The position numbers and the translations under genes are program-made. A model generated the notes under the pieces. It ran no database searches, was not told the origin of the DNA, and saw only the letters and a list, made by a program, of their open reading frames with translations. Below are positions 6,993 to 37,500 of a stretch of 64,000 bases of DNA, piece after piece. The stretch is from a virus. Numbering within the stretch: position 1 is the stretch's first letter; each line of letters starts with the position of its first letter. Location of the stretch: IMG/VR virus record IMGVR_UViG_3300036772_000425, positions 10,924 to 74,923 of that record; one strand, written 5' to 3'.

Positions 6993-8429
6993 TCAGAGGA
7001 TCTTGGACGCCAGTGTCGCAAGGTCAGAACGCTCACCCTTGATCAGGCTGACATGTCCTGAGATCGGGTACTCCTTGAAGCGCTCTACCGCGTACGACAG
7101 GCCGTTGGTGAAAACATCCACATGCACGTTGTCGATCTGTTCGATGTCGCCCGTCAGAACGATCTTCGTACCGTCACCGACCCTGGTGATGATCGTCTTC
7201 AGTTCGTGCATCGACAGGTTCTGCGCCTCGTCGATGACGATGAAGGCGTTCGGGATGCTGCGGCCCCTGATGAAGCTGATGGCCTCGATCTCGATGAGGC
7301 CCCGATCCTGCATCACCTGCAAGTAAGAATCCTGGAAACCAGCTGGCCGAGAACGCGCACCTCGATCATCTCGGGTTTTCTTGGGTCGAGAACGACGTTG
7401 GTCCATCAGGAAGTTCAGGTTGTCACGGATCGGAGCGATCCAAGGTTCCATCTTCTCCTCCAGCGTACCAGGAAGAAAACCGATGTCCTTTCCCACGGGT
7501 TGCACGGGTCGGGTGACGATCAACTTGTCGTACCGAGCCTTCTGATCTCCCAGACCTTTCAACTGCTCGAGAGCAGAGGCAAGGGCGAGCAGGGTCTTGC
7601 CGGTACCGCTGGGACCGACCAGAGTCAGCAGCTTGATGTCCGGATCGAACAACAGATCCAAGGAGAACGCCTGTTCCTTGTTCCTCGGCTTGAGACCGAA
7701 CGCCTGGTCGATGCGAGCAATCTGAACCAGGTTCTCACCGACGCACTTGGTGATGGCGGAGTGGGTGGTCTCACCGTTCTCAACATGCTTCATGATGCAG
7801 ATCTGATTCGGGTAGGCTCGGTAATCCGGGCCCAACGCAGCGGCCACGCTCATCTTGCCGTTCCGGAAGAACTCATTGATCGTGTTCTCGGGAACCTCGA
7901 TCAGGTCGACGCCGCGGTAGAATTTCTGTGGATCATCAGCGATCCTCATCTTCAGGTAATCCTCGCACCTGATGCCGAGGCTGTCACACTTGATCCGAAC
8001 GTTGATGTCCTTGGAGACAAGGATCGCACCTGCCTTGACCAAGGCATGACCGATGATCAGGTTGTCAGGTTTGTCAGGACGAAGGTCAAGCGGTAGCTTC
8101 CCCTTCGCGCTTTCATCCAACTGCATCACGCTCAGCTTGCCACCATTGTCCAAGGAGATGCCCTGCAGCAGGCTGCCCTTCTCCCTCAACCCATCCAGGT
8201 TTCGGGACACCAACCTTGCATTGCGCCCCACCTCGTCCGGACGGCTTTTGTGCCTGTCCAGCTCCTCCAGCACGATCATTGGGATGATGACGTGGTGCTC
8301 ATCGAACGAGAAGATCGCGGTCGGATCGCTCAGCAGAACATTCGTGTCAAGGACGTAAGTCTTGATCTCCATCACCTCTCCGTTGCTGATCTGAACTGCT
8401 TGGTGCTGATCGTGGACGTTCTTGTACAC
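6993..8429 (-). CDS. phoH: PhoH-like ATPase with N-terminal PIN domain (PhoH2/YlaK type)
   Basis: N-terminus IKTYVLDTNVLLSDP...IIPMIVLEELD (PIN), then GPSGTGKTLLALASALEQ Walker A and a PhoH-type C-terminal domain. The start may instead be the internal MEIK. Confidence 0.85.
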   Translation of the reverse strand: MYKNVHDQHQAVQISNGEVMEIKTYVLDTNVLLSDPTAIFSFDEHHVIIPMIVLEELDRHKSRPDEVGRNARLVSRNLDGLREKGSLLQGISLDNGGKLSVMQLDESAKGKLPLDLRPDKPDNLIIGHALVKAGAILVSKDINVRIKCDSLGIRCEDYLKMRIADDPQKFYRGVDLIEVPENTINEFFRNGKMSVAAALGPDYRAYPNQICIMKHVENGETTHSAITKCVGENLVQIARIDQAFGLKPRNKEQAFSLDLLFDPDIKLLTLVGPSGTGKTLLALASALEQLKGLGDQKARYDKLIVTRPVQPVGKDIGFLPGTLEEKMEPWIAPIRDNLNFLMDQRRSRPKKTRDDRGARSRPAGFQDSYLQVMQDRGLIEIEAISFIRGRSIPNAFIVIDEAQNLSMHELKTIITRVGDGTKIVLTGDIEQIDNVHVDVFTNGLSYAVERFKEYPISGHVSLIKGERSDLATLASKIL

Positions 8430-11236: not shown

Positions 11237-11839
11237 TCACCTGCGGGGATTCAGGATCCTGTCCACGATGCCAAGCTTCACCGCCTTTTCGGGCGTTACG
11301 TAGAAGTCGACCTTGGGATCCATGATCTTCTTCACCTGCGCCGTCGACATCTTGGTTTCCCTCGCGAGGGCGCCCACCATCAGGTCGTGCAAGCGTCTGC
11401 ACTCCTTTGACTGGTTTTCCATTTCGAAAACGTTACCGAAGGCGCCGCCCGACAGGGAGTGCATCATGATCCTGGCGTTTCCGCCGATCGATCGATGTCC
11501 CTTGGCTCCCGCGGCGAGCAGGAGAACACCGGCTGACATCACCTTGCCGAGACCGATGGTGTGAACTGGGCACGGAAGGAACTTGATGGTATCGTACAGG
11601 CTGAACATCTCATCGACCGAACCACCGTACGTCGACACGACGAGATTGATCGGTTCTCTGTTGATGTTGGCAAAGTGCAGGAGCTGTGCGATGACACTGG
11701 CGATAGACCCCTCAGTCACCTCACCGTGAAGGAAGACAATCCTTTGTGAATCCTGCTGCACCTGCATGTCCTGACCCACCAGCGTCATGGACTCTTCGTT
11801 CAACGACGTAGCGCGCACCTCGACTGTTGGCCTACCCAT
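11237..11839 (-). CDS. clpP: ClpP-like serine protease
   Basis: VFLHGEVTEGSIASVIAQLLHFANINREPINLVVSTYGGSVDEMFSLYDTIKF...GKVMSAGVLLLAAGAKGHRSIGGNARIMMHSLSGGAFG, a ClpP fold with the catalytic Ser context (MSAG). Confidence 0.8.
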   Translation of the reverse strand: MGRPTVEVRATSLNEESMTLVGQDMQVQQDSQRIVFLHGEVTEGSIASVIAQLLHFANINREPINLVVSTYGGSVDEMFSLYDTIKFLPCPVHTIGLGKVMSAGVLLLAAGAKGHRSIGGNARIMMHSLSGGAFGNVFEMENQSKECRRLHDLMVGALARETKMSTAQVKKIMDPKVDFYVTPEKAVKLGIVDRILNPRR

Positions 11840-11842
11840 GGT

Positions 11843-12103
11843 TCAACCTCCGATGATTTCTTGAGCAGTTTCTGGAGCACCGATCAGGAACAGTTCTTCA
11901 CCGCCCACGTCCCTGATCGCAGCGGTCAATTCTTTCATCTGTTCAACGTTCTCCAGTTCCATCGCCAGCAGGTACATGACCATCAACGTCTGGCGCTGCG
12001 TGATGCCGAAGTTCATGATCTCCCTGACCATCTGACGACAGATCAGGTTCTCATCAGCGACACGATCCGACTGGAGCTTGCCGTACAAGGCAACCGGGTT
12101 CAC
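11843..12103 (-). CDS. Hypothetical protein
   Basis: 86-aa ORF tightly packed in the minus-strand operon (4-nt gap to ClpP). Confidence 0.45.
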   Translation of the reverse strand: MNPVALYGKLQSDRVADENLICRQMVREIMNFGITQRQTLMVMYLLAMELENVEQMKELTAAIRDVGGEELFLIGAPETAQEIIGG

Positions 12104-12579
12104 CCTGTCACCTCCTCGCGGGTGAACGATTCGACCTTGAACATGTTCTCTCCCATGATCCTAACGTATTTCCCTTGCCTTGTGCCGTCCACCTCATCGG
12201 TGCTCAGGACGAGGAAGTCACCCCACCGCTTGTTCTCCAGGATGAAGGATGCCATCTCCCACGTCGGAAGATCTGCTCGGTTTGAATCCAGGATGCTGGC
12301 AAGGTTGGCCGGCAACGACGGCCGCAGCTCGTCTACCGTCATGATCGAACCCATCTCTTCCCGGTTGACGATGACGGACCGGCAGATGTCGACCACCTTG
12401 TGCACGACACCGCAGTTGTTGCACTGGGAGAACTTGACGTTGACGGTCGAATCATCGTTCATGGAAGAGAAAACCGTGAACTGGTGACGCGGCGGATCCG
12501 GTCGATTCTTGAACTGCGACATGACGCAGCGGCAGGTGATGAGATGTTTCAGCCCAGACGCCACTTCAGAGTTCTCCAT
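12100..12579 (-). CDS. Hypothetical protein
   Basis: 159-aa ORF. Overlaps the downstream gene start by 4 nt (ATGA-type coupling). Confidence 0.5.
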   Translation of the reverse strand: MENSEVASGLKHLITCRCVMSQFKNRPDPPRHQFTVFSSMNDDSTVNVKFSQCNNCGVVHKVVDICRSVIVNREEMGSIMTVDELRPSLPANLASILDSNRADLPTWEMASFILENKRWGDFLVLSTDEVDGTRQGKYVRIMGENMFKVESFTREEVTG

Positions 12580-12955: not shown

Positions 12956-14083
12956 ATGGCACAATCTCTCAAGGAAACCTACCAGAAGCGGCAGATCGAA
13001 CGGCTCAAGCACCGGCTTCCGTCCATCGAAGATCACCTGATGATGGAGGCCTACGATGCCCAGCTGCTCGTGGAGGTCATGGATCAGCAGGACCTCGACA
13101 AGGTCGCGGCGATCGTCAAGAAACTTGACACCATCAAGAGCGCCGCGGGCAACGACCTCCCAGCCCTTACCGATGCGATCGATCAGGCCCAAGCAGAACT
13201 CAACAAGTACACGGCAGGTGGCCCCATCACGGCTGCATGGACCAAGCTGAAGCAAAAGGTTGGGATCGACAACCCGATCGTGAAGATCGCAACGTTCAGC
13301 AACGCCCTAGAGCAGGGTTTCAAGCAGCTGCCGCAGATCCTGAAGAACAACGGCATCGACATCAAGAACCTGAACAACGACGGGAACGTGAGGTTGGTGG
13401 ACGCTGTCGCTCGTCAGCTCGACAAAAAATCGGGACAGCAGGGCAATCCCAAATCATCTGGGAACACTCCGCCTAAAATGGGAGAGGCAGATGCTCCGAC
13501 GATCAGCACGCATGACATCGAATCGATGCACCGATCAGATTCGAGCAAGGCTGCGGGACAACGGGTCAAGAACATCGTGGATCAGATCAGGAAGTCGTTG
13601 GCCCCGAGCGGGATCTTCGGTGCCTTCAAGAAGATCCCGTACGTGGACGGTGATGCGCTGGCGCAGGCCCTCAGCAATTCCCATGTTTCAACGTTGATCA
13701 AGATCTCGCAGGCCGTCACCAGCGGTCCGCAGACGAGCGAGATCGCGCCAGACCTGAAATCAAACGTGATGGGAGGCGGCGAGGCGCAGAACAAGGCCAC
13801 GAACCCAGAGCAGGACACGAAACCCAACAGCCAGACCGGATCCTCGGCCCCAAGCTCGACGACAACATCGCCCGCAAACTCTACGGCGACCGGTCAGGTG
13901 CCGGCGCAAGGTCCCGGTGAGCAGCGCGGCGGAGGATCCAAGCCCGCAAAGCTGGAGGATGGTTCGGTCCAGAGCATCGCCAACTTCATCTCGAAGCAGA
14001 CAAAGGCCGACCCTGCGACCACGTTGAAGATCCTGACTGCGCTCAACAACAACGGAAAGCTGCGCGAAACCGTCAAGAAATGA
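12956..14083 (+). CDS. Hypothetical protein with low-complexity Ser/Thr/Pro/Gly-rich C-terminal region
   Basis: 375 aa. Coiled-coil-like N-terminal half; C-terminus NSQTGSSAPSSTTTSPANSTATGQVPAQGPGEQRGGGSK. Confidence 0.5.
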   Translation: MAQSLKETYQKRQIERLKHRLPSIEDHLMMEAYDAQLLVEVMDQQDLDKVAAIVKKLDTIKSAAGNDLPALTDAIDQAQAELNKYTAGGPITAAWTKLKQKVGIDNPIVKIATFSNALEQGFKQLPQILKNNGIDIKNLNNDGNVRLVDAVARQLDKKSGQQGNPKSSGNTPPKMGEADAPTISTHDIESMHRSDSSKAAGQRVKNIVDQIRKSLAPSGIFGAFKKIPYVDGDALAQALSNSHVSTLIKISQAVTSGPQTSEIAPDLKSNVMGGGEAQNKATNPEQDTKPNSQTGSSAPSSTTTSPANSTATGQVPAQGPGEQRGGGSKPAKLEDGSVQSIANFISKQTKADPATTLKILTALNNNGKLRETVKK

Positions 14084-15347
14084 TGGCACCCAGTGCCGCA
14101 AGCGTCTTCAAGCACGCGGCGGCATGGAACGTGGCCGCCGCATGGGTGGCCGCCAACGATCCTTCATGAACCCCGTGCTGAACAGTCGACCTGATGGTCC
14201 GCAGCACGGTGTCGATGGCCTGAGCCTTTTGAACAAAATTCATGTCATCGACCAGGCGCACCACGACATGGTTGGGCGTCAGTGTTCTGATGCGCTTGTC
14301 GAGCAAGGCCCCCAGATCGTCCACGGATTCTTCGTCGCGGCGAGCCCTCAGGGTGTTGACATGGGCGAACACCTGCTTACGTGTTGACCTGGAAACTAGG
14401 GAGATTCGGGAGGGTGCCACGTCGATCCGATCCACGACCGGAAGTTCATTGATCCTGATCGAGCTGATCAGATCACCCTTCAGGCTGGACACAAGGTCAC
14501 ACCCCGCGATCGTTGCAATGTCGTTCAGCGTGTTCATGCCCTCCAGGTCGAAAGGGACTGCGCACAGGACGACACGTAGGTGCCCTCTATCGTAGTTGAT
14601 CTTCAGCGTTTGTTTGACGTCTTCCGCCGCGCCCCTGACGAAAATTGCACAGGGTTCCTTGGTCTCAGCGGCCGATTCGAGCAGGTGATGGATCTCAGAG
14701 ACTGATTCGATGAGACCGTCGATGCACGCAACCCGGGGCAGAAGCAGCGAACAATCGATGGAGAACAACGGTCTGAGGTCGAAGGTGTACCCACTGACGA
14801 GCTCCACTGAGTTCACACCAGATGCTGATTTTTCAACTATGATCTTACCACGTAGTCCGGCCAACCGCACGGCCTCCTTACACACAGCGCTGGTGAAAGG
14901 ATCACTGTTGATTTCAATGATGTCGTGCAGCTCATGTTCCGAGGCGTGGAGGCCGAACTTCGGTTGGATCGGATCTGTCTTCAGGACCATGATCTCCAAC
15001 ATGGCATTCAACGATCCGGGGCTGATGCGTTCAGCCCTCAGCCCATGGTTCAACACGATCTCATGGATCAGTTGGTGCGGAACGCTCCCGGATTTGAAAT
15101 CGAAGATCCCCTGCAGTTGGGTTTTGATGCGTGGACCCGTGGATGCCTGTGCCAGGCTGGTCCTGATCGGAAGGATCCTTGCGATCTGATCCTTCACGTC
15201 ATCGATGACCGCTGGAACCTCTGATGTCATGATGCCCATGTTGGGCATCGTACTCAGGGGGTGAAGTGTATGTGCCCAGCAAGGAAATCGTACAGCAACT
15301 TCCCCAGTCCCGCTAGGGCACCTGTGCCCAGAAAACCAAGGAACCAC
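14073..15347 (-). CDS. Truncated GroEL-like (Cpn60 apical/intermediate-domain) protein lacking the N-terminal ATP-binding motif
   Basis: [29 protein letters not shown] ~ GroEL [60 protein letters not shown] ~ [30 protein letters not shown]. C-terminal [27 protein letters not shown] ~ [24 protein letters not shown]. No GDGTTTATVLA-type motif is present. The true start is probably [8 protein letters not shown]/MTSEV (~15240). Confidence 0.6.
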   Translation of the reverse strand: [424 protein letters not shown]

Positions 15348-15676
15348 TTCAGGCTACGCGAAGCGGTATCAATCCATTGAGAGTTGGACTTGACCTTGTG
15401 ATACAGCCCGGTGTCAGGGTCGAGCACGACCTCGTGGATCGCAGTGATCTTTTTACTGTCTTCTTCGCGCGATCTCTGCAATTGCTCTGTGACAGATTCG
15501 ATCTTCTCCACCTTTTCAACGAGCTTATCGAAGCCTCCGTTCATCACGGGTCTCTCAAGCTTCAGCTCAAGCTTCTCCAGGACCTTATCCTGGGCCTCGA
15601 GCGAGGCAGTGACAAAATCCTCAAAATCATCACGATCTCCGTTGGGCCGGGGGCTCGGTCTACGATGTGATGGCAT
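15254..15676 (-). CDS. Hypothetical coiled-coil protein with C-terminal hydrophobic segment
   Basis: 140 aa. KVLEKLELKLERP...VEKVEKIESVTEQLQRSREE, then WFLGFLGTGALAGLGKLLYDFLAG (probable transmembrane segment). Confidence 0.45.
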   Translation of the reverse strand: MPSHRRPSPRPNGDRDDFEDFVTASLEAQDKVLEKLELKLERPVMNGGFDKLVEKVEKIESVTEQLQRSREEDSKKITAIHEVVLDPDTGLYHKVKSNSQWIDTASRSLKWFLGFLGTGALAGLGKLLYDFLAGHIHFTP

Positions 15677-15887
15677 GGACCCTCGAGTGCGCCTCTTGAT
15701 CTAGCTATTTCAGTACCCTGATCTCCAGAGGACTGATCAGATCTAGATCAGGATCTAGAAAATGTTCAACCGACGCGCTGCATGCGAACCAGTCTGTCTA
15801 ATTACCGAAGCGATCCAGAAGTTCGCACTCGTTGTGCAAGGTTCCTGAGACCATGAACAGAACACAGTCGGGCTGTACGATCGTAGC

Positions 15888-34500: not shown

Positions 34501-34727
34501 ACAACCTCGAGATTGTAGAAGTCACCGGTTACTCACACGACGGGCTCATCATCATCGATCGACGAGGTGCGGTCTGGATGACGCTGGACAAACCGTGGTG
34601 GCATCCGATCACCTGGATTCGAGCATTCATGCCCGGCCGTCGCGTCTTCCTTGTCCTGAACACGCTGCACGGCCGTTTCAGGGCCAAGGCCATCGAGCTC
34701 AACAAGACCCACATCCGGATGGGATGA
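34497..34727 (+). CDS. Hypothetical small protein
   Basis: 76-aa ORF (MNNLEIVEVTGYSHDGLIIIDRRGAVWMTLDKPWWHPITWIRAF...). Frame-consistent with its neighbours. Confidence 0.4.
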   Translation: MNNLEIVEVTGYSHDGLIIIDRRGAVWMTLDKPWWHPITWIRAFMPGRRVFLVLNTLHGRFRAKAIELNKTHIRMG

Positions 34728-34765
34728 ACAACGTCGTTCTTTGGAGTACCTATAACAGGAGGTCA

Positions 34766-35821
34766 ATGAACCCAGTGAGGGTTCGGGACCCCATCACGGA
34801 GAGTGAGATGCACAATTTCGGCGTTTTTGTTGGTCGTTTCCAACCCTTTCACACCGCGCACCTCGATACGTTGCGTTTCGCCCTTCGTAAGGTGGAACAA
34901 CTGATCATCGTAGTCGGGAGCGACAACCGAGCTCGGACCGTCAAGGATCCTTGGAGCTCCGCAGAGCGGATTGCCATGATCCGTAGCTGTCTCAGCAACG
35001 AAGAACGCCTGCGTGTAGCCTTCGTGTCCGCCAAGGACTACCTCTATAACGACAACATGTGGATCGCAGAGATCCAACGCGCCGTCAAGGCGCTGGTCGG
35101 ATCCTCCAAGGATGTTGTCCTGATCGGGCACAAGAAGGATGCCAGCAGTTTCTACCTGAACTTGTTCCCACAGTGGGAGTTCATCGACTCAGAGGTTGTC
35201 GCGCCCAACGTCGGTGCAACGAAGGTCCGTGAGCTGATGTTCAGCCTGGACAAGATCGGGGTGAGGGCATGCCTGCCTCCCAACGTCTTCGCTCTGATCC
35301 AGGAGTTCATGGAGACAGATGAGTTCAAGCGTCTCTACGAGGAACACCATCACATCCAGAACTACCGAGCACAGTGGGCGGATGCTCCTTTCCCGCCCAC
35401 TTTCAACACCGTCGATTCGGTTGTCATCTGCAGCGGCCATGTCCTCGTCGTCCGCCGGCGCTGTGCTCCCGGGAAGGGATTGATCGCCCTTCCGGGCGGG
35501 TTCCTCAACGTTGATGAAAGGATCATCGACGGTTGCCTTCGGGAGCTGAAGGAAGAGACTGGGATCAAGGTGGCAACGCAGGAGCTTCGAAAGCTCATCG
35601 TGGACAACAAGGTCTTCGATCACCCGGGACGTTCGCTGCGGGGTCGGACGATCACGCATGCAGTGTGCATCAACCTCAGTCGGGGTGAGCTGCCAACTGT
35701 CAAGGGCATGGACGATGCCGACAAGGCCTGGTGGATGCCGTTGGACACCGTCTACGAGAATGAATCGTCGTTCTTCGAGGACCATTTCCACATCGTGAAC
35801 TACTTCATCAACAGGGTTTGA
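34766..35821 (+). CDS. natV: Bifunctional NMN adenylyltransferase / Nudix ADP-ribose pyrophosphatase (NadM-Nudix, NatV-like)
   Basis: AGGAGG RBS then ATG 34766. FGVFVGRFQPFHTAHLDTLRFAL (NadM (H/T)xGH-type nucleotidyltransferase). C-terminal Nudix box ALPGGFLNVDERIIDGCLRELKEETGIKV. Confidence 0.85.
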   Translation: MNPVRVRDPITESEMHNFGVFVGRFQPFHTAHLDTLRFALRKVEQLIIVVGSDNRARTVKDPWSSAERIAMIRSCLSNEERLRVAFVSAKDYLYNDNMWIAEIQRAVKALVGSSKDVVLIGHKKDASSFYLNLFPQWEFIDSEVVAPNVGATKVRELMFSLDKIGVRACLPPNVFALIQEFMETDEFKRLYEEHHHIQNYRAQWADAPFPPTFNTVDSVVICSGHVLVVRRRCAPGKGLIALPGGFLNVDERIIDGCLRELKEETGIKVATQELRKLIVDNKVFDHPGRSLRGRTITHAVCINLSRGELPTVKGMDDADKAWWMPLDTVYENESSFFEDHFHIVNYFINRV

Positions 35822-36060: not shown

Positions 36061-36117
36061 GTTAGAAAACGCCGGATCGGACCGGAGAGGTCCTTGCTGG
36101 CATCACGGAGAGTGAAA

Positions 36118-37500
36118 ATGATCGATCATAACATCATCCTCGACACTGACAGTTACAAGGCCAGCCACTGGCTGCAGTACCTGCCCAACACCACCAGCGT
36201 CTTCTCGTACATCGAGAGCCGCGGCGGGCGCCATGATCACACGGTCATGTTCGGGCTGCAGTACTACCTGTACCGGTATCTCCACCAGAGCATTAGTGCC
36301 CTTGACATCAAGGAGGCTGAGGCATTCTTCCAGGTGCATGGCGAACCCTTCAATAGGAAGGGTTGGGAACATGTGTTGGAGGCGCACAAAGGAAAGTTGC
36401 CCCTGAAGATCAGGGCGGTGCCGGAAGGGTGCGTGATCCCGACCCACAATGCTCTGGTCACCGTTGAGAACACGTGTCCGGATTGTTTCTGGCTCACCAG
36501 CTGGGTCGAGACCATGCTTCTCAGGATCTGGTATCCCATCACGGTCGCGACGGAGAGCCGTCACATCAAGGGCATCATCAAAGGCTGGTTGGAGAAGACC
36601 TCCGACGACCCGGCTGCCGAGCTTCCATTCAAGCTTCACGACTTCGGCTCCCGTGGGGTGTCCAGCAAGGAATCGGCCGAGATCGGTGGTGCGGCCCACC
36701 TCGTCAACTTCATGGGCAGTGATACAATCGCCGGCGTCCTGATGGCCAATCGCTACTACGACTCCAAGATGGCGGGATTTTCGATCCCAGCTGCTGAGCA
36801 CTCAACCATCACCTGTTGGGGGCGTGAACATGAGGTCGATGCGTATAGGAACATGCTGAAGCAGTTCGCAAAGCCCGGTTCCCTTGTCGCAGTTGTCTCT
36901 GACTCCTACGACATCTTCAACGCATGTTCGAACCTGTGGGGTGGTGAGCTGAAGCAGGCTGTGATCGACTCGGGCGCGACCATCGTGATCCGACCCGATT
37001 CAGGTGACCCTGCCACCGTCGTTCGAACCTGCCTGGAGCTGCTCGACGCAAAGTTCGGCAGCACCCTGAACTCGAAGGGGTACAAGGTCCTGAACCACGT
37101 TCGGGTGATCCAGGGAGATGGGATCAATGCAGACTCGATCGAGAAGATCCTGTTCATGGCGACGAACGCCGGGTTCAGCGCAACCAACATCACGTTCGGG
37201 ATGGGAGGAGCGTTGTTGCAGCAGCACAACCGCGACACCCAGAAATTCGCCATGAAGTGCAGTCATATCGTGTCGGACGGCAAGGGCATCGATGTCTTCA
37301 AGGATCCTGTGACCGACAGCGGCAAGCGCAGCAAGCGTGGTCGGTTGGATCTGGAGGTTTTCGAGGGCCGTTACACCACCGTCAAGCTCAACGATGGACA
37401 GGATCGTGCTCCGTATTCCATCATGCAGACCGTCTTCGAAAACGGGAAAGTGACCAAGGAGTACACTCTGGAAGAGGTACGCCACAACGCTCGGATCTGA
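36118..37500 (+). CDS. nadV: Nicotinamide phosphoribosyltransferase (NAMPT/NadV)
   Basis: MIDHNIILDTDSYKASHWLQY...FGLQYYL...DFGSRGVSS...MGSDTIAG...PDSGDP...VIQGDGIN..., full-length NAMPT with hallmark motifs. GGAGAG RBS upstream. Confidence 0.9.
   Translation: MIDHNIILDTDSYKASHWLQYLPNTTSVFSYIESRGGRHDHTVMFGLQYYLYRYLHQSISALDIKEAEAFFQVHGEPFNRKGWEHVLEAHKGKLPLKIRAVPEGCVIPTHNALVTVENTCPDCFWLTSWVETMLLRIWYPITVATESRHIKGIIKGWLEKTSDDPAAELPFKLHDFGSRGVSSKESAEIGGAAHLVNFMGSDTIAGVLMANRYYDSKMAGFSIPAAEHSTITCWGREHEVDAYRNMLKQFAKPGSLVAVVSDSYDIFNACSNLWGGELKQAVIDSGATIVIRPDSGDPATVVRTCLELLDAKFGSTLNSKGYKVLNHVRVIQGDGINADSIEKILFMATNAGFSATNITFGMGGALLQQHNRDTQKFAMKCSHIVSDGKGIDVFKDPVTDSGKRSKRGRLDLEVFEGRYTTVKLNDGQDRAPYSIMQTVFENGKVTKEYTLEEVRHNARI

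Follow-up and report, generated by a model that had tools for sequence, protein, structure and literature searches.

The DNA analyzed here, called the window below, is a 64-kb stretch of a 340,433-bp contig from an uncultivated phage (IMG/VR record IMGVR_UViG_3300036772_000425), and the gene of interest in it encodes a protein derived from the chaperonin GroEL. In the list of open reading frames (ORFs), this protein lies in a minus-strand ORF at 14073-15347, which reads 424 amino acids (aa) from a GTG. That ORF, which the original prediction took as the gene, does exist, but the real gene is probably 14073-15248, encoding 391 aa from an ATG at 15248. We favor this start because the upstream gene ends at 15254, because the JGI gene call is also 391 aa long, and because homologues begin there. 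The JGI call (P0001) is 100% identical to the predicted product of 14073-15248, a gap of 5 nucleotides (nt) separates the ATG from the stop of its upstream neighbor at 15254, and the 5' extension toward the GTG (15254-15347) overlaps the 3' end of that upstream gene. The GroEL-like gene stops with a TGA at 14075-14073. The probable gene and its parts are as follows.

14073..15248, minus strand: gene for the GroEL-derived protein, 391 aa plus stop, drawn from the ORF list, JGI P0001, the start and stop context, and the family alignment.
14949..15248, minus strand: aa 1-100, presumed N-terminal equatorial stub (helix A, stem-loop hairpin, helices B and C, and one short D/E helix).
14793..14948, minus strand: aa 101-152, first intermediate-domain segment (GroEL ~134-190), from HMMER and hhalign alignments.
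14268..14792, minus strand: aa 153-327, apical domain (GroEL 191-376), the best-conserved part.
14175..14267, minus strand: aa 328-358, second intermediate-domain segment (GroEL 377-409), with Y, N, or H at the position of catalytic D398.
14073..14174, minus strand: aa 359-391 plus stop, a short beta hairpin and a 19-residue helix with an invariant Cys379, the sole C-terminal equatorial remnant.

Homology to GroEL was recovered in several ways. A phmmer search against PDB aligned ORF residues 144-404 with GroEL 149-421 (E values of 2e-13 to 1e-8), the ORF matched the PHROG family "chaperonin groEL" (E = 9e-14), and a profile built from 45 family members matched GroEL with an E value of 6e-21. 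The homology to apical and intermediate GroEL residues ~150-430 claimed in the original prediction is therefore borne out. The [8 protein letters not shown]-like GroEL block is kept ([14 protein letters not shown] vs [14 protein letters not shown] / Gro[16 protein letters not shown]), the hinge glycines G192 and G410 of GroEL are conserved in the phage family, and the apical and intermediate domains are homologous to those of group I chaperonins (Cpn60 fold). On the other hand, Pfam Cpn60_TCP1 gave no match to the ORF even at E ≤ 10, and the NCBIfam GroEL models scored 33 to 53 bits against cut-offs of 352 to 1041, so that no curated threshold (including that of TIGR02348) was reached. Because the phmmer and PHROG matches stand against a missing Pfam match and low NCBIfam scores, we consider the homology real and the protein far from a standard GroEL. 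By sequence, the family is nearer to bacterial GroEL than to gp146 of Pseudomonas phage EL, which was not among the 60 PDB profile matches listed.

The product is short at one end and unrecognizable at the other. It ends near GroEL residue ~433, about 115 residues before the end of GroEL, in agreement with the early end noticed at first. A low-stringency hhalign alignment carried P0001 residues 2-381 onto GroEL 3-433, with GroEL ~93-122 deleted; with the N-terminal ~100 aa alone, no similarity to GroEL 1-135 was detectable (hhalign probability of <1%). The N-terminal segment that was said to be missing is thus missing at the level of sequence, but some 100 aa are physically present there and, according to the predicted structure, look equatorial. 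To cover other chaperonin parts, hidden Markov models (HMMs) of full-length GroEL, of its residues 1-135, of its residues 430 to the end, and of GroES were derived from 80 GroEL and 72 GroES sequences and run against all six-frame ORFs of ≥30 aa in the window, which is 64 kb of the 340-kb genome, and in 61 related loci (2 from ENA and 59 from IMG/VR, each with ±6 kb). Whatever the frame, neither the window nor the 61 loci yielded another N- or C-terminal GroEL fragment or a GroES-like ORF. We accordingly rejected a split gene close by, as well as homology that runs on in a different frame, and the claim that no other frame continues the homology stands.

Structure prediction and superposition support a GroEL fold. 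An AlphaFold2 model of the monomer, computed from the 45-sequence alignment (pLDDT of 90.6 and pTM of 0.75) superposes 370 of its 391 residues on a full-length phage chaperonin, and the top 50 Foldseek matches in PDB are all group I chaperonins (best E value of 9e-24), with alignments of ~440 to 456 columns for most full-length targets. The apical domain of the model is intact and superposes on 1kid at 2.2 Å. In the model, the N-terminal ~100 aa look like a stub of the equatorial domain that sequence comparison does not recognize, and predicted helices D and E appear shrunk to one short helix, matching the deletion of GroEL ~93-122. An invariant G359 aligns with hinge glycine G410, beyond which only a short hairpin and one 19-residue helix follow. 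This last helix (aa 366-384) could correspond to GroEL helix N, by simple truncation, or to helix R, by an internal deletion of ~417-496.

Residues were mapped with the hhalign alignment and with the established GroEL domain boundaries and site roles (nucleotide binding, catalysis, adenine pocket, ring and inter-ring contacts, and groove); alignment confidence is low in the N-terminal part, and the alignment around GroEL 199-204 includes indels. The GDGTTT loop has no counterpart, as the original prediction held, and a conserved GPGGF (within AEKxGPGGF) stands at the same position. The changes by site are listed here.

Nucleotide site: D87 is P in 43 of 45 sequences; T89, T90, and T91 are G/A, F, and D; the D52 loop is absent (deleted); G414-G416 are deleted.
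Catalysis: D398 is Y, N, or H, with an invariant Asp346 one position earlier.
Adenine pocket: 479-495 (N479, A480, I493, and D495) is absent.
Ring contacts: R197 is L; E386 is D or N.
Inter-ring contacts: helix D (K105 and A109) is deleted; R452, E461, S463, and V464 are absent.
Groove: L234 is H; L259 is K; V263 is K or R; Y199 is P or Q; F204 is deleted; Y203 is conservatively I, L, or V.
Groove and adjacent positions kept: L237, V264, N265, and R268.

The nucleotide-binding and catalytic residues of a group I chaperonin are thus not retained, and of the complete equatorial domain (6-133 plus 409-523) the C-terminal half breaks off one helix past G410. The GGM tail of GroEL is also absent from the family. 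Five of the eight classical groove positions that bind substrate and GroES are polar, charged, or deleted, and the groove is in this respect not the hydrophobic one of GroEL. By curated thresholds, ATP site, equatorial domain, and groove alike, the protein falls outside the functional group I chaperonins. Conservation within the family is highest in the apical domain, with a mean top-residue frequency of 0.68 overall and 0.81 in the helix H/I block (aa 183-224), compared with 0.43 and 0.50 in the two equatorial stubs. In GroEL the pattern is the reverse, with the equatorial domain being the most conserved. Within the phage protein, the surface under the tightest constraint is the face formed by apical helices H and I (with H187, K212, K216, N218, and R221), which has been remodelled and is now partly basic.

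The same short form recurs widely. A word-indexed search of 5.8 billion proteins returned 165 relatives; the 120 that were listed are 38 to 58% identical to the query, nearly all 360 to 428 aa long, and encoded on contigs of up to 370 kb. When 1.84 billion representatives of metagenome clusters (50% identity) were searched exhaustively with a profile, at least 670 clusters matched at E ≤ 1e-30. The best 150 of the 670 range from 202 to 440 aa, and most reach profile position 404 to 406 of 407 and do not run on beyond it. In all but two of the window and the 61 related loci the stop-to-stop frame is 373 to 436 aa, and in nearly all of them it closes at or shortly past the end of the profile match. 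Neither the cluster search nor the 61 loci contained a longer form, and the orthologs therefore share a conserved form of ~400 aa and are not full-length. The short form in at least 670 clusters and 61 loci agrees with the earlier view that this is not a frameshifted full-length chaperonin. The family has 32 invariant columns among sequences that are only 37 to 51% identical. It is a strongly conserved, genuine gene of an uncultivated huge-phage clade with genomes of about 300 to 370 kb.

Outside metagenomic contigs the family was not encountered. It is carried by 59 IMG/VR contigs, and no member was found in 185,579 bacterial and archaeal species (GTDB species representatives, one genome each) or in 50,697 GenBank phage records (tblastn, E ≤ 1). 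In the GenBank phages, tblastn matched nothing but full-length GroELs, at 22 to 30% identity, from phages of Flavobacterium, Cellulophaga, and Maribacter. No near-identical DNA was found among deposited phages. BFVD, which holds models of viral UniProt proteins, contained no short form either; its chaperonin matches at E ≤ 0.001 were 458 to 782 aa long (511 to 609 aa for those named GroEL or Hsp60), with the chaperonin of Bacillus phage AR9 at the top. The novelty among phages that had been anticipated is in line with the lack of a short form in deposited phage genomes and viral UniProt models, and our literature search found no description of a truncated or short phage GroEL family. Some members are labeled "chaperonin GroEL" by JGI, and most are called hypothetical.

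The surroundings of the gene are conserved as well. Across the loci, the order is glycosyltransferase (minus), small membrane protein (plus), GroEL-like gene (plus), convergent gene (minus), three small genes, ClpP, helicase, and PIN-PhoH, and the window has the same layout as the 61 related loci. Three features flank the gene in the window.

15254..15676, minus strand: upstream partner, predicted 140-aa coiled-coil protein with a Gly-rich C-terminal membrane anchor.
15677..15887, no strand: divergent intergenic region between the glycosyltransferase gene (plus) and the pair of partner and GroEL-like gene (minus), with an AAGAGG ribosome-binding site.
12956..14083, plus strand: convergent 375-aa ORF with a low-complexity middle rich in S, T, P, Q, and G, sharing 11 nt with the 3' end of the GroEL-like gene.

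The upstream partner was found by tblastn in 48 of the 61 loci, and in about 53 of the 61 an ORF with a C-terminal KW..GGG..K..YD..H ends at the start of the family gene. Because the stop of the partner lies 5 nt from the GroEL-like start, the two are probably cotranscribed. The N-terminal motif of the partner is conserved (LNGGFDxLxxKVExIE ... IHxxxYxPDxGL). XhlA (PF10779) was considered for this protein and rejected, as 2 of 10 homologues scored 14 to 15 bits where the cut-off is 34.7, and one related locus (L001) gave a faint match; the resemblance extends only to the layout of a coiled coil plus a C-terminal anchor. In the intergenic region, four of the five CTAGATC copies of the window cluster at 15698-15758, where only this clustering is notable, because five copies in the whole window are no more than chance would give. 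Related loci repeat different short palindromic 7-mers (CTTAAGA, AAATTTA, and AGATCTA) in the corresponding intergenic position. The CTAGATC cluster may be an operator or promoter element; a sigma-70 promoter scan around the GroEL-like gene gave no sites.

That the C-terminal side of the gene is taken by a plus-strand gene was seen correctly at the outset. The tail-to-tail convergent gene is kept in 27 of the 61 loci by tblastn and is present in L001 and L002, and scans of family libraries with the 375-aa ORF gave no family match. Two further small proteins, of 159 aa (12100-12579, minus strand) and 86 aa (11843-12103, minus strand), accompany the GroEL-like gene in 61 and 60 of the 61 loci, respectively, with their genes just upstream of ClpP. 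The 159-aa protein has a CxC...CxxC pattern and is likely a zinc ribbon, the 86-aa protein appears helical by eye, and neither matched Pfam, PHROG, or NCBIfam. The ClpP-family protein itself (200 aa, 11237-11839, minus strand) scored 133 bits with ClpP models and 53 bits with a model of ClpP-related head-maturation proteases, and from these scores it may be a true ClpP-like protease and not a prohead protease. A PIN-domain/PhoH fusion of 478 aa (6993-8429, minus strand) is kept in 50 of the 61 loci. Between the helicase and PIN-PhoH genes, L001 (13886-14116 and 15221-15502) and L002 (14128-14358 and 14917-15204) encode Hc1 histone-like and small sigma-70 region-4 proteins.

The gene content of the window is that of a phage, with PIN-PhoH, a helicase, a ClpP-family protease, a match to a T4-type baseplate wedge protein, many glycosyltransferases, NAMPT, and NMNAT/NUDIX. 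The description of this phage as T4-like holds only loosely: the baseplate wedge match speaks for it, but by helicase the closest cultured phages, both at ~31% identity, are Bacillus phage G and the 308-kb Tunturiibacter phage Tunturi_5. Neither this gene order nor a homologue of the GroEL-like gene occurs in Tunturi_5. Two plus-strand genes form a nicotinamide adenine dinucleotide (NAD) salvage pair, an NMNAT/cytidylyltransferase-NUDIX fusion (34595-35821) and a nicotinamide phosphoribosyltransferase (36094-37500). A long plus-strand run of sugar modification genes at ~15888-44400, which holds several glycosyltransferases (of family 2 and others) along with a methyltransferase, an aminotransferase, and a nucleotide-sugar epimerase, points to a large glycosylation island encoded by the phage.

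Taken together, the GroEL-like product is a degenerate GroEL paralogue. Its apical domain survives together with the two intermediate segments and what looks like a small stub of the equatorial domain. The residues for nucleotide binding and catalysis, helices D/E, and the GGM tail are gone, as is the C-terminal half of the equatorial domain, which in GroEL supplies the adenine pocket and the contacts within and between rings. This motif loss upholds the central claim of the original prediction, a GroEL-derived phage protein without the ATP machinery. From the lost ATP residues and the lost C-terminal equatorial half, we infer that the protein would have no GroEL ATP cycle and no ATPase activity, and most likely would form no GroEL-type heptameric ring. 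Instead, it may bind one or a few specific partners independently of ATP, as a dedicated holdase, assembly factor, or adaptor. The H/I face would make the contact, and the protein would probably work alongside the product of the gene just upstream, the tail-anchored coiled-coil protein of the membrane. We give about an even chance to this reading as a whole, in which a ring-less, ATP-independent GroEL derivative binds specific partners, probably together with the membrane-anchored protein.

Several observations weigh against it. A Gly-rich GPGGF stands exactly at the GroEL phosphate-loop position, and the invariant Asp346 lies beside the D398 position; because of this loop and this residue, the protein may bind nucleotide or phosphate in an altered way. 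The N-terminal and last-helix assignments come from a predicted model, and the tie to the upstream membrane protein is one of adjacency. The search for other chaperonin parts covered 64 kb of the 340-kb genome, and the search of GenBank phages yielded no cultured phage with the gene.

A bolder version of the preferred reading, in which a specific partner is bound without ATP, is tentative, and we would not put much weight on it. Here the protein would be the first natural counterpart of the laboratory-made minichaperone, given a new specialty by a basic His/Lys apical groove, tethered to the cell membrane by its coiled-coil partner, and acting as an assembly chaperone for a structural protein of huge phages (e.g., a capsid or portal initiation complex).

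The best-surviving alternative, doubtful though possible, is that the protein is a natural minichaperone in the general sense, an ATP-independent holdase for exposed hydrophobic segments that uses the apical groove much as the engineered GroEL fragment 191-376 does. The intact apical domain, with its 2.2-Å superposition on 1kid, and the retention of L237, V264, N265, and R268 fit this view. The isolated GroEL apical domain binds nonnative proteins hydrophobically (PMC4973282), and the chaperonin of phage EL stops aggregation without encapsulating its substrate (PMC7185714). However, five of the eight groove positions are changed (L234 to H, L259 to K, V263 to K/R, Y199 to P/Q, and F204 deleted), and the very high conservation of the altered face fits a specific partner better than promiscuous binding. 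In GroEL mutagenesis by Fenton et al. in 1994, single polar substitutions at groove positions reportedly abolished polypeptide binding, which also counts against a general holdase. A promiscuous hydrophobic minichaperone is thus the less likely form, and the stand-alone apical domain first proposed fails because the protein retains the two intermediate segments together with a small stub of the equatorial domain.

The original prediction also raised a decoy, and this we consider improbable. As a decoy or modulator of the host chaperonin, the protein would titrate GroES, or enter or cap host GroEL rings to redirect them toward phage proteins. T4-type phages depend on host GroEL, the protein descends from GroEL, no GroES-like or gp31-like gene lies near the locus or in the window, and the predicted model is slightly closer to GroES-bound subunit conformations (TMq of 0.62 to 0.65 versus 0.47 to 0.50), all of which would suit such a role. 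However, the GroES mobile loop uses the same H/I groove that is altered here at L234, L259, V263, Y199, and F204, which disfavors GroES titration, and the protein lacks what anchors a subunit within a GroEL ring, namely helix D, the R197-E386 contact, and the C-terminal half of the equatorial domain.

Quite improbable, too, is a split chaperonin that remains ATP dependent and is complemented in trans by an equatorial half from another phage gene elsewhere. The reach of the HMM search (64 kb of the genome and ±6 kb of the related loci) and the Gly-rich loop at the phosphate-loop position leave some room for it. In contrast, no GroEL C-terminal fragment turned up in any frame of the window or the 61 loci, no family member has a longer form, and the N-terminal motifs that such a protein would still need (D52, D87, and T89-91), along with D398, are gone as well. 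Finally, the gene might be taken for a full-length phage GroEL that is decaying as a pseudogene or that was shortened by a frameshift or by an error of sequencing or assembly. Such readings have only the reduced length in their favor and are ruled out for practical purposes: at least 670 clusters and 61 independent loci share the architecture and ORF ends, the neighbors and gene order of these loci are conserved, 32 columns are invariant at 37 to 51% identity, and the fold prediction is confident.

A natural family of at least 670 clusters has thus apparently dropped the ATPase and half of the ring domain, with the apical domain under the strongest selection, and evolution would in this way have reused the client-binding module of a chaperonin alone. 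The family offers a natural test of what an apical domain can do without encapsulation, and huge-phage biology would gain in it a proteostasis or assembly factor of a new kind. The JGI label "chaperonin GroEL" overstates the capability of its members.

Compared with known systems, the protein is closest to Escherichia coli GroEL (1aon and 1kid), with which it shares homology over 149-421, the apical and intermediate folds, and G192 and G410. It differs from GroEL in being ~150 residues shorter, in lacking GDGTTT, D52, D398, GGG414-416, the C-terminal equatorial half, and the GGM tail, in having a groove that is partly His/Lys, and in having the apical and not the equatorial domain as the best-conserved part. 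To our knowledge, every characterized GroEL homologue, including those of EL, OBP, and AR9, is a full-length, ATP-driven ring. The chaperonins of Pseudomonas phages EL (gp146; 6tmt) and OBP (6hdd) and of Bacillus phage AR9 are likewise GroEL homologues encoded by large phages, but they are full-length (511 to 609 aa), whereas in the present family the ATP site is gone and the equatorial domain is halved. Gp146 of EL actively hydrolyzes ATP, assembles into double and single rings, prevents aggregation without encapsulation, and works without GroES (PMC7185714), and AR9 has been described as having a single-ring chaperonin (PMC9598537). By its length and motifs, the present protein falls outside this full-length (~510 to 610 aa), ATP-hydrolyzing, ring-forming type.

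Engineered minichaperones (191-345 or 191-376; 1jon and 1kid) resemble what the phage protein appears to be, an ATP-independent, ring-less, apical-centered piece of GroEL. They are laboratory fragments with the native hydrophobic groove, whereas the phage protein is natural, adds the intermediate domain and an equatorial stub, and has an altered groove. We know of stand-alone apical domains only as engineered fragments, the physiological relevance of which was long debated. The CCT-like domain of PIKfyve/Fab1 (7k2v) derives from a eukaryotic group II chaperonin, is embedded in a large kinase, and has no close relationship to the family. T4 gp31, a phage solution to the chaperonin-dependent folding of its own proteins, and GroES have an unrelated fold and act on host GroEL.

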